This document shows, in pieces, positions 3,813-60,035 of a stretch of DNA of 64,000 nt (the first letter of the stretch is position 1; each line of letters opens with the position of its first letter). The stretch lies in the NCBI RefSeq assembly GCF_016026235.1, contig NZ_CP065613.1. One strand, 5' to 3'. Origin of the DNA: Escherichia coli (GTDB lineage: Bacteria > Pseudomonadota > Gammaproteobacteria > Enterobacterales > Enterobacteriaceae). A model generated the notes under the pieces. The model made no database searches. It saw nothing but the letters and a program-made list of their open reading frames with translations, and was not told the DNA's origin. A program made the position numbers and the translations under genes.

Positions 3813-5849
3813 ATGGTACCCTCAACATTTTCTCGTTTGAAAGCCGCGCGTTGTCTGCCTGTTGTTCTGGCAGCCCTGATTTTCGCCGGTTGTGGCACCC
3901 ATACTCCCGATCAGTCCACTGCTTATATGCAGGGCACGGCGCAGGCTGATTCTGCCTTTTATCTTCAGCAGATGCAGCAAAGCTCTGATGATACCAGGAT
4001 CAACTGGCAATTACTCGCCATTCGTGCACTGGTGAAAGAAGGTAAAACCGGGCAGGCGGTTGAGTTGTTTAACCAACTACCGCAAGAACTGAACGATTCT
4101 CAGCGTCGCGAGAAAACACTGCTGGCGGCAGAGATTAAACTGGCGCAGAAAGATTTTGCTGGCGCGCAAAACTTGCTGGCGAAAATCACACCTGCCGATT
4201 TAGAACAAAACCAGCAAGCGCGTTACTGGCAGGCAAAAATCGATGCCAGCCAGGGGCGTCCTTCCATTGATTTACTGCGCGCGTTAATTGCTCAGGAACC
4301 GCTGCTTGGCGCGAAAGAAAAACAGCAGAATATTGATGCCACCTGGCAGGCGCTCTCCTCCATGACTCAGGAACAAGCGAATACGCTGGTGATCAACGCC
4401 GACGAAAATATTCTGCAAGGCTGGCTGGATCTGCAGCGCGTCTGGTTTGATAACCGTAACGATCCCGACATGATGAAAGCCGGGATCGCCGACTGGCAGA
4501 AACGTTATCCGAACAACCCGGGCGCGAAAATGCTGCCAACGCAGTTGGTTAACGTAAAAGCGTTTAAACCAGCCTCGACCAACAAAATCGCCCTGCTGTT
4601 GCCACTGAATGGCCAGGCAGCGGTATTTGGTCGCACTATTCAGCAAGGCTTTGAAGCGGCGAAAAATATCGGCACTCAGCCAGTGGCAGCTCAGGTAGCT
4701 GCCGCACCTGCCGCAGACGTAGCAGAACAACCTCAACCGCAAACCGTGGATGGCGTTGCCAGCCCGGCACAAGCCTCGGTTAGCGATCTGACCGGTGAAC
4801 AGCCTGCAGCCCAGCCGGTGCCTGTAAGCGCCCCGGCGACAAGCTCCGCAGCGGTAATCGCACCCGCAAATCCATCCGCAGAGCTGAAAATCTACGATAC
4901 CTCATCACAACCACTTAGCCAGATCTTAAGCCAGGTTCAGCAGGATGGCGCGAGTATTGTGGTCGGTCCGTTGCTGAAAAATAACGTTGAAGAGTTGCTG
5001 AAGAGCAACACTCCGCTGAACGTACTGGCACTGAACCAGCCGGAGAATATCGAAAATCGCGTCAATATTTGTTACTTCGCGCTTTCACCGGAAGACGAAG
5101 CGCGCGATGCAGCGCGTCATATTCGTGACCAGGGTAAACAAGCGCCGCTGGTGCTGATCCCACGCAGTTCATTGGGCGATCGCGTAGCCAATGCGTTTGC
5201 ACAAGAGTGGCAAAAACTGGGCGGCGGCACCGTTCTGCAACAAAAATTTGGTTCCACCAGCGAATTACGCGCGGGTGTTAACGGCAGTTCTGGTATTGCT
5301 TTAACGGGTAGCCCGATTACTCTCAGAGCGACAACCGACTCCGGCATGACGACCAACAATCCAACACTGCAAACCACGCCAACCGATGACCAGTTCACCA
5401 ATAATGGCGGTCGTGTCGATGCGGTGTACATTGTGGCAACGCCGGGTGAAATCGCTTTTATTAAACCGATGATCGCCATGCGTAACGGTAGCCAGAGCGG
5501 TGCAACGCTGTACGCCAGCTCCCGCAGTGCGCAAGGGACCGCTGGCCCGGATTTCCGACTGGAGATGGAAGGCTTGCAGTACAGCGAAATCCCGATGCTG
5601 GCAGGCGGTAATCTACCGTTAATGCAGCAGGCACTCAGCGCGGTGAATAACGATTATTCACTGGCTCGCATGTATGCGATGGGCGTCGATGCCTGGTCGC
5701 TGGCAAATCATTTCTCACAAATGCGCCAGGTTCAGGGTTTTGAAATCAACGGTAATACCGGAAGCCTGACGGCTAACCCGGATTGCGTGATTAACAGGAA
5801 GTTATCATGGCTACAGTACCAACAAGGTCAGGTAGTCCCCGCCAGTTAA
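3813..5849 (+). CDS. lpoA: Outer-membrane lipoprotein activator of PBP1A
   Basis: 678 aa from ATG 3813; lipoprotein signal with lipobox (ALIFAGC) and a long Ala/Pro/Gln-rich linker. Confidence 0.9.
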
Positions 5850-58920: not shown

Positions 58921-59189
58921 CCGTCAAGCAAACTGTTGAAATCACAAACAAGCTGGGCATGCATGCCCGGCCTGCAATGAAGCTGTTTGAATTAATGCAG
59001 GGTTTTGACGCTGAAGTGCTGTTACGTAATGACGAAGGCACCGAGGCTGAAGCCAACAGCGTTATTGCGCTGCTGATGTTGGATTCTGCCAAAGGGCGGC
59101 AGATTGAAGTTGAAGCGACCGGTCCACAGGAAGAGGAAGCACTGGCCGCCGTTATCGCCCTCTTTAATTCTGGTTTTGATGAAGATTAA
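58917..59189 (+). CDS. npr: Nitrogen-PTS phosphocarrier NPr
   Basis: 90 aa HPr-like protein (GMHARPA); its start overlaps the rapZ stop. Confidence 0.95.
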
Positions 59190-59335
59190 TCTTCATCACT
59201 TTGACATACAACTCCCTTCAAACTCCCCCCGACAATAAGAAAATCACGTACTGAAATCGTTCTCAATCAACGTCAATTGTACATTTCGTGCGCTTTTTAC
59301 TTTCAGAAGAACCTTAAGAAAACCTTAAGAAGCAT

Positions 59336-59352
59336 TGTTTAGGTTTCGTTTA
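59336..59352 (+). promoter_or_regulatory. Candidate PhoP box in the yrbL promoter
   Basis: TGTTTA-ggttt-CGTTTA is a direct hexamer repeat with 5-nt spacing, 12 nt upstream of a -10-like catact and about 50 nt upstream of the yrbL ATG. Confidence 0.5.
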
Positions 59353-59402
59353 AGTTAATCGACCATACTGGAGATCGTCAGAAAATATTTCCAGGAGATG
59401 GC

Positions 59403-60035
59403 ATGATTCGCTTATCTGAACAAAGTCCCCTGGGCACCGGAAGACATCGGAAATGTTATGCGCATCCGGAAGATGCCCAACGCTGTATCAAGATTGTCTA
59501 CCATCGTGGCGATGGTGGCGATAAAGAGATCCGTCGTGAGTTAAAGTACTACGCGCATCTTGGTCGCCGGTTAAAAGACTGGAGTGGAATACCGCGCTAT
59601 CACGGTACCGTTGAGACGGATTGCGGAACCGGTTATGTCTACGATGTGATTGCCGATTTTGACGGCAAGCCCTCCATTACGCTGACCGAATTTGCTGAAC
59701 AATGCCGTTACGAAGAAGACGTTGCACAACTGCGCCAGTTACTGAAACAGCTGAAGCGTTATTTGCAGGATAACCGTATCGTGACGATGTCGCTGAAGCC
59801 GCAGAATATCCTCTGTCACCGCATTAGTGAGTCAGAGGTTATCCCCGTCGTCTGCGACAACATTGGTGAAAGCACATTGATTCCACTGGCGACCTGGTCA
59901 AAGTGGTGTTGTCTGCGTAAGCAAGAGCGGTTGTGGAAACGATTTATCGCCCAACCGGCGCTGGCTATTGCCCTGCAGAAAGATCTGCAACCTCGTGAGA
60001 GCAAAACGCTGGCCCTCGCTTCGCGCGAAGCTTAA
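59403..60035 (+). CDS. yrbL: PhoP-regulon protein YrbL
   Basis: 210 aa, [33 protein letters not shown]. Confidence 0.9.

Follow-up and report, generated by a model that had tools for sequence, protein, structure and literature searches.

We analyzed a 64,000-nt stretch (the window) of an O157:H7-type Escherichia coli chromosome. The feature of interest lies where the rpoN-hpf-ptsN-rapZ-npr cluster ends, in the 213-bp spacer that separates its final gene, npr, from yrbL. Of 5,426 complete E. coli genomes, 5,425 have this spacer, and in many O157 genomes it is 100% identical. The downstream gene encodes a 210-aa protein-kinase-like protein, an assignment drawn from the ORF list, from the RefSeq annotation of the identical locus, which names the product "PhoP regulatory network protein YrbL", and from a Pfam match (PF10707, E = 1e-67). 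The features of the spacer and gene are as follows, with negative positions counted from the inferred transcription start:

59275-59296, plus strand: 22-bp upstream block aaTTGTACATTTcGTGCgCTTT (= TTGTACATTTcGTGCgCTTT), about -96 to -75
59310-59331, no strand assigned: perfect 22-bp tandem duplication of the 11-bp unit AACCTTAAGAA (units 59310-59320 and 59321-59331)
59313-59329, minus strand: predicted BasR/PmrA box CTTAAG-GTTTT-CTTAAG (half 1, 59329 to 59324; half 2, 59318 to 59313), centered at about -50 and facing away from yrbL
59336-59352, plus strand: PhoP box TGTTTAggtttCGTTTA, that is, TGTTTA-ggttt-CGTTTA (half-sites 59336-59341 and 59347-59352), at about -35 to -19, where it replaces the -35 element
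59364-59369, plus strand: -10 hexamer CATACT, 11 nt 3' of the PhoP box
~59371, plus strand: approximate yrbL transcription start, placed by homology
59393-59397, plus strand: yrbL Shine-Dalgarno sequence AGGAG
59403-60035, plus strand: yrbL coding sequence, with the ATG at 59403

For transcription of yrbL we identified no sigma-70 -35/-10 pair in 59100-59500, which fits an activator-dependent promoter. The start was placed by transferring the 32-nt leader mapped by S1 in Salmonella to the ATG at 59403. It would lie at ~59371, and a position a few nucleotides further downstream is possible. No intrinsic terminator was detected in 59100-59500 of this strain, or between npr and yrbL in K-12, so transcription of the rpoN operon may be able to continue into yrbL in E. 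coli. In Siccibacter and Pluralibacter the npr-yrbL spacer has a clear stem-loop followed by a T-run (compare window positions 59190-59275), and those of cryptic Escherichia clades have a GC stem-loop that lacks the T-run.

Two other kinds of content were considered for the spacer and rejected. An RNA element is not indicated: a search of Rfam at E <= 1 returned one meaningless snoRNA match only, and the RNA fold of the spacer has z = +0.47. A small ORF running from TTG at 59277 to TAG at 59340-59342 would cross both the upstream block and the repeat, and in the alignment a stop interrupts its frame in Citrobacter. Two methylation sites occur near the start of the gene. A Dcm site, CCAGG (59391-59395), shares bases with the yrbL Shine-Dalgarno sequence. 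Just past the -10 is a Dam site, GATC (59373-59376), which is not conserved outside E. coli. In a dcm deletion yrbL is among the five most significantly up-regulated genes (+0.83 log2; preprint, PMC11741368).

The original prediction placed a PhoP direct repeat at 59336-59352, and these coordinates are exact. Half 1 is perfect, and the C at 59347 in half 2 is the sole mismatch to the strict consensus (T/G)GTTTA-N5-(T/G)GTTTA. When one mismatch to this consensus is allowed, 14 of 100 shuffles yield at least as many matches as the window. With the relaxed half-site (C/G/T)GTTTA the PhoP box is the sole match in the window, and 9 of 100 shuffles give at least one. The box is thus not significant on sequence match alone, and its credibility comes from position, conservation, and published experiments. 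With regard to position, it is in direct orientation, replaces the -35, and ends 11 nt before the -10, the same distance as published for Salmonella yrbL. The promoter position originally predicted is correct, and the predicted distance of about 12 nt to a -10-like element becomes 11 nt when measured to CATACT. With regard to conservation, the position of the box is kept in orthologous promoters of 15-17 genomes. Its position relative to the ATG is -67/-68 in an E. hormaechei copy as well as in 14 genomes of Escherichia, Citrobacter, and Salmonella, and the boxes of Siccibacter and Erwinia sp. are weaker.

The published experiments were done on close relatives. In Salmonella, yrbL has one DNase-footprinted PhoP box, TCGTTTAGGTTTTGTTTAA, in direct orientation and 11 nt before a -10 CATACT, and a single PhoP- and low-Mg2+-dependent start (S1) with a 32-nt leader; the promoter is assigned to architecture I, with class II activation predicted (PMC3335776). 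The same work names (C/T/G)GTTTA as a PhoP-box subclass, and this includes CGTTTA, half 2 in the window (PMC3335776). In Shigella, PhoP-P shifts a near-identical, K-12-type yrbL promoter (EMSA on tTGTTTAggtttTGTTTAa), and in a phoPQ deletion yrbL falls to 0.02x, a 50-fold drop (PMC5775216). In both K-12 and Shigella, half 2 of the yrbL box is a perfect TGTTTA. The box of Shigella yoaE, which has the TGTTTA/CGTTTA combination seen in the window, is also shifted by PhoP-P (PMC5775216). Dependence on phoP and Mg2+ and protection of the site by PhoP had been named as tests of the original prediction, and in these relatives the outcomes are in effect positive. By analogy with them, the box is the PhoP site of yrbL, already published in Salmonella and Shigella, and PhoP is predicted to bind the C variant of O157 as well.

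The neighboring repeat had been described as accttaagaa-a-accttaagaa at 59311-59331. This is exact, and the full unit, AACCTTAAGAA in two copies, occupies 59310-59331. TRF finds the repeat independently (59305-59332, period 11). No other perfect 11+11 duplication occurs in the window, and local shuffling produces one in 1.5% of windows. The original prediction attached meaning to its helical-turn periodicity, rightly, as an 11-bp period is the half-site spacing of OmpR/PhoB-family dimers.

One such regulator is BasR/PmrA. A PmrA box is defined by half-sites CTTAAG / NTTAAT, 5 bp apart, that are bound head to tail by a response-regulator dimer (PMC3973317). The yrbL repeat alone is a perfect match to YTTAAK-N5-YTTAAK in the 64-kb window, where 0.08 matches are expected. 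Together with its flanks (59329 to 59310), the minus-strand repeat is CTTAAGGTT-TT-CTTAAGGTT, and overall it reads CTTAAGGTTTTCTTAAGGTT. The boxes of K-12 BasR-activated promoters, in direct orientation, are CTTAAGGTTGGCTTAAT at eptA, CTTAAGGTTCACTTAAT at pmrR, and CTTAAGGTTAAGTTAAT at arnB. The 9-nt extended half-site CTTAAGGTT is common to the yrbL minus strand and to half 1 of all three (9/9). Upstream of K-12 eptA (4638-4673 of the piece fetched), an inverted extra copy precedes the BasR box and forms the palindrome AACCTTAAG-AA-CTTAAGGTT, which suggests a second, oppositely oriented BasR half-site at the eptA promoter.

In E. coli the two hexamers are the palindrome CTTAAG and give no direction by themselves, and we therefore read the orientation of the box from the flanking GGTT and from orthologues. 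The plus-strand distal hexamer is ATTAAG in E. albertii, Citrobacter, Salmonella, and Pluralibacter, so that the minus strand reads CTTAAG-GTTTT-CTTAAT, the canonical order of half 1 and half 2. From this evidence we infer, with considerable confidence, that the repeat is the BasR/PmrA box of yrbL; we equate it with the published PmrA site on the basis of its sequence and the reported distance of ~24 bp. On this assignment the perfect duplication is two identical BasR half-sites with their flanks, and is an Escherichia-specific state. Of the earlier suggestion that the repeat could be an additional binding site, the part that survives is protein binding; an extra PhoP site gives way to a BasR/PmrA box. 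The sequence of a BasR site at yrbL was not found in the papers searched, and a literature search with the literal sequence returned the Shigella PhoP box only.

The assignment can be followed across genera. We aligned 13 promoters (E. coli O157 and K-12, two divergent "E. coli" lineages, three cryptic Escherichia, E. albertii, four Citrobacter, and S. enterica arizonae), and six further loci fetched via YrbL homologues brought the number of promoters examined to 19. In the 13-promoter alignment the spacer is scrambled save for four islands, namely the upstream block, the BasR box with its AAAAC spacer, the PhoP box, and the invariant CATACT. The block, BasR box, PhoP box, and -10 are at -125, -90, -67, and -39 from the ATG, and the 14 genomes of Escherichia, Citrobacter, and Salmonella depart from these positions by at most 1 nt and Siccibacter by at most 3 nt. 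The BasR box was identified in 18 of the 19 promoters, and its proximal half, AAAACCTTAA, is invariant in all 13 that were aligned. In Cedecea and Erwinia sp. the box is present, flipped to the plus strand, and the upstream block is absent. Occurrence of the hexamer pair in Escherichia, Salmonella, Siccibacter, Pluralibacter, Cedecea, and Erwinia sp. indicates that the pair is ancient.

Control of yrbL by PmrA is consistent with prior reports. Both PhoP and PmrA have binding sites in the E. coli yrbL promoter, and the two boxes are ~24 bp apart in Salmonella (PMC2681069); in the window the BasR and PhoP boxes are 23 bp apart, start to start. Papers from the Groisman laboratory describe PmrA as a direct repressor of the E. 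coli yrbL promoter, and repression is given in three papers (PMC3335776 and PMC2681069 among them). An independent transcriptome of E. coli B lines adapted to Fe(III) shows strong up-regulation of basR, eptA, and the arn operon, with yrbL repeatedly among the most down-regulated genes (PMC13405929). The sign of BasR regulation comes from review-type statements in one laboratory's later papers and from one correlative transcriptome.

In Salmonella, yrbL is the earliest-induced yet lowest-expressed PhoP target, and in an E. coli optogenetic study it saturates early. Both observations fit a strong PhoP site that is held down by a second regulator.

The layout of the box can be compared with that of activating sites, which face the gene and end 10-13 nt from the -10. 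At yrbL the BasR box is inverted and lies at about -50, and the PhoP box intervenes between it and the -10. An inverted box at this position fits the published repressor role, and not activation.

Putting these lines of evidence together, we consider it very likely that the yrbL promoter core integrates two OmpR/PhoB-family regulators, with PhoP activating and BasR repressing at the repeat. At low Mg2+, PhoP-P would bind TGTTTA-N5-CGTTTA in the place of the -35 and activate transcription in class II fashion, as extrapolated to this strain from its close relatives. BasR-P, formed in response to Fe3+ or mild acid via BasS, would bind CTTAAG-N5-CTTAAG, with the regulation taken from the literature. 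PhoP-induced PmrD may contribute to this step; the PmrD link between PhoP and BasR is weaker in E. coli, and disputed. Bound on the opposite strand at about -50, BasR would lower yrbL transcription. A box that does not lie 10-13 nt before the -10 implies that BasR cannot be a class II activator at yrbL, and the inverted orientation and -50 position would explain why BasR does not activate this gene, unlike eptA, arnB, and pmrR.

How repression might be exerted is suggested by the spacing of the sites. The four hexamers are in helical register, starting at 59313, 59324, 59336, and 59347 (spacing 11, 12, and 11 bp), followed by 11 nt and then CATACT. The BasR and PhoP hexamers are 6 bp apart, with all half-sites on one helix face. 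Given this gap and shared face, BasR most likely hinders PhoP binding or the contacts between PhoP and RNA polymerase. Alternatively, BasR could block upstream (alpha-CTD) contacts of the polymerase. This route is less likely because the alpha-CTD is dispensable at mgtA, the model architecture-I promoter (PMC3335776). The PhoP box is in addition a one-mismatch BasR-type match (TTTAGG-N5-TTTAAG, 59338-59354). This might allow direct competition between BasR and PhoP, a weak possibility to which we attach little weight. The predicted outcome is an early, low-amplitude PhoP response that would be shut down once BasR is active.

The opposite sign of regulation was also weighed. The box could be a BasR activation site, either driving a divergent transcript antisense to npr or activating yrbL itself. 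Read on the minus strand, it is in direct orientation, like the boxes of eptA, arnB, and pmrR, and one regulator table lists "BasR, PhoP" for yrbL without a sign, in a study in which yrbL rises in iron-poor serum (PMC4145685). However, there is no conserved -10-like hexamer on the minus strand 10-13 nt downstream of the box, where 59298-59309 is the most variable part of the promoter, and there is no gene to express in the divergent direction. A divergent BasR-activated promoter was rejected as the main function of the box, as it has no conserved -10 in the right place. Activation of yrbL itself is made unlikely by the decrease of yrbL when the BasR regulon is up (PMC13405929) and by the three statements of PmrA repression. 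We regard BasR activation, in either form, as improbable.

Slightly less probable again is that the repeat tunes PhoP-dependent transcription as a protein-independent architectural element, either through intrinsic curvature or as an UP-like element. Its 11-bp period, A/T-rich composition, and location at about -60 to -40, where alpha-CTD contacts occur, would suit such a role. However, it holds a single A4 tract and no phased A-tracts, and on the same grounds the original suggestion that it could contribute to DNA bending is a poor explanation. The alpha-CTD is not required at mgtA (PMC3335776). Moreover, conservation across genera falls precisely on the TTAAG hexamers and the 5 bp between them, with the distal hexamer drifting only to the allowed CTTAAT, and the 9/9 match is to known BasR boxes of the same genome.

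We give hardly any credence to a second upstream PhoP site, which has precedent in the two-box promoters of architecture II but would contain no GTTTA and would differ from Salmonella yrbL, for which a single PhoP box is listed (PMC3335776), or to a recent functionless slippage duplication, given that unit copy number does change by slippage but the hexamer pair is ancient (Escherichia to Erwinia sp.) and two copies occur in essentially all of ~5,400 E. coli genomes.

Returning to the predicted arrangement of PhoP activation and BasR repression, we examined how its sites vary within E. coli. The 73-nt core (59300-59372) was found in 5,409 of 5,426 complete genomes, with an exact match to the window in 603; coverage was truncated in a single record, and a single record matched at 80-90% identity. 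The main variants, given relative to the window, are:

59331, A>G: K-12 type; the duplication is then 21/22 rather than perfect
59343, G>A: B2 strains such as E2348/69; in the PhoP spacer
59347, C>T: K-12 type (Shigella also has TGTTTA); O157 and B2 have CGTTTA

All three spare every BasR hexamer and the GTTTA cores. In an evenly spaced sample, the approximate allele shares are ~57% for the K-12 type, ~27% for the B2 type (59347 C with 59343 G>A), and ~11% for the core of the window.

Copy number of the 11-bp unit was surveyed with synthetic 1-copy and 3-copy queries, and each had one full-length, single-piece match among the matches listed. The 1-copy allele is in the ST131 strain 4993 (NZ_CP103557.1), in which exactly one unit is lost, leaving a single half-site. 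The 3-copy allele is in the O157:H7 strain 493/89 (NZ_CP038412.1), where three half-sites are in register. All other matches listed, from ~5,400 E. coli genomes, spanned 86 nt of the 2-copy form, a count that could miss variants on other haplotypes. The repeat slips but stays at two copies, which is what a site for a dimer would predict.

Further upstream, the block at 59275-59296 is a conserved element in its own right. Its 22 bp are invariant in the 13 aligned Escherichia, Citrobacter, and Salmonella promoters, with scrambled flanks, and its sequence is unique in the window; the K-12 counterpart lies at chromosome coordinates of about 3,348,324-3,348,345. A core, TnTAC-N5-GTGC, is present at a fixed distance in Siccibacter, in Pluralibacter, and in the diverged E. 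hormaechei yrbL copy. Across at least six genera the block keeps a distance of ~35 nt to the BasR box and of ~58 nt to the PhoP box, and Pluralibacter retains the 35-nt distance. The E. hormaechei copy lies in AT-rich DNA and has no npr upstream; the block, PhoP box, and -10 are retained there despite a decayed BasR box. The block thus appears to belong to the yrbL promoter module.

The block gave no Rfam match, RNA structure, conserved ORF, or recognizable promoter. It had no match among the motifs tested, and no mention of it was found in the literature searched. We compared the block with the usual consensus sequences of several regulators, and it is not known to match any of them over its full length. 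An RstA box fits only the first 10 nt, and a MlrA half-site does not fit along the whole length. A sigma-54 -24/-12 element would require GG where the block has TG. No whole-length fit was obtained for CRP, FNR, TyrR, or a marbox. Tentatively, and with somewhat less than even confidence, we suggest that the block may be a third yrbL cis-element, the site of another regulator, centered at about -85, and that the 1-copy and 3-copy alleles may be natural variants with loss and gain of BasR control. With such a site in the block, yrbL would integrate three inputs rather than two.

The arrangement in the window resembles several known promoters. At yrbL of K-12, Shigella, and Salmonella the locus and elements are the same: a direct PhoP box, 11 nt, CATACT, and a PmrA site just upstream. 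Relative to K-12, the window differs in having CGTTTA as half 2 (59347) and A rather than G at 59331. Salmonella pmrD has the same logic and layout, with an architecture-I PhoP box, a PmrA box upstream, activation by PhoP, and repression by PmrA, and its authors describe a bi-fan motif common to pmrD and yrbL (PMC3335776, PMC2681069). The distance between PmrA and PhoP boxes at pmrD is ~38 bp, versus ~23-24 bp at yrbL (PMC2681069). The targets also differ in that the pmrD product is the connector protein itself, closing a feedback loop, whereas yrbL encodes a kinase-like protein.

Promoters that respond to only one of the two regulators show what is shared and what is not. The recognition sequence CTTAAGGTT-NN-(C/G)TTAA(T/G) is common to yrbL and eptA (pmrC), arnB (pmrH), and pmrR. 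In these three, by our own reading, the box points toward the gene, with 10-13 nt between its end and a -10-like hexamer, which is an activating position. At yrbL, in contrast, the box is inverted and one dimer-length further upstream, and the PhoP box holds the activating position. The architecture-I promoters of mgtA, phoP, and slyB likewise have a single direct PhoP box over a poor -35, one turn from the -10 (PMC3335776). The yrbL promoter differs from them in having 11 nt instead of 12, an adjoining box for a second regulator, and the conserved upstream block.

As a discovery this carries little weight. yrbL is already known as a reference PhoP promoter, with dual PhoP/PmrA control in the literature since 2003-2005; the promoter was reportedly described by the Groisman and Utsumi laboratories (Minagawa 2003; Zwir et al. 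2005, PNAS), and later in PMC3335776 (Zwir 2012). The present analysis gives the repeat a specific predicted regulator, strand, and sign in place of a vague reading. In addition, the natural alleles (1, 2, or 3 copies of the unit, and T or C in the PhoP box) and the upstream block could be used for promoter dissection.

Finally, some observations concern the protein itself. Two contigs from gut metagenomes encode YrbL-family proteins of ~50% identity downstream of dnaE. Their neighbors include a Kdo/WaaP-type LPS kinase gene (PF06293), a second YrbL paralogue, and an O-antigen-ligase-type gene (Wzy_C, PF04932). This context hints that the YrbL kinase-like family may act on the cell envelope or LPS. 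Point mutations in YrbL recur under cationic-peptide selection (PMC11842939), and an envelope or LPS role would fit both these mutations and control by PhoP and BasR. A 420-bp contig labelled Tannerella forsythia ATCC 43037 (NZ_JUET01000135.1) codes for YrbL residues 1-129, 98% identical to the E. coli protein, and is almost certainly E. coli contamination in that assembly.
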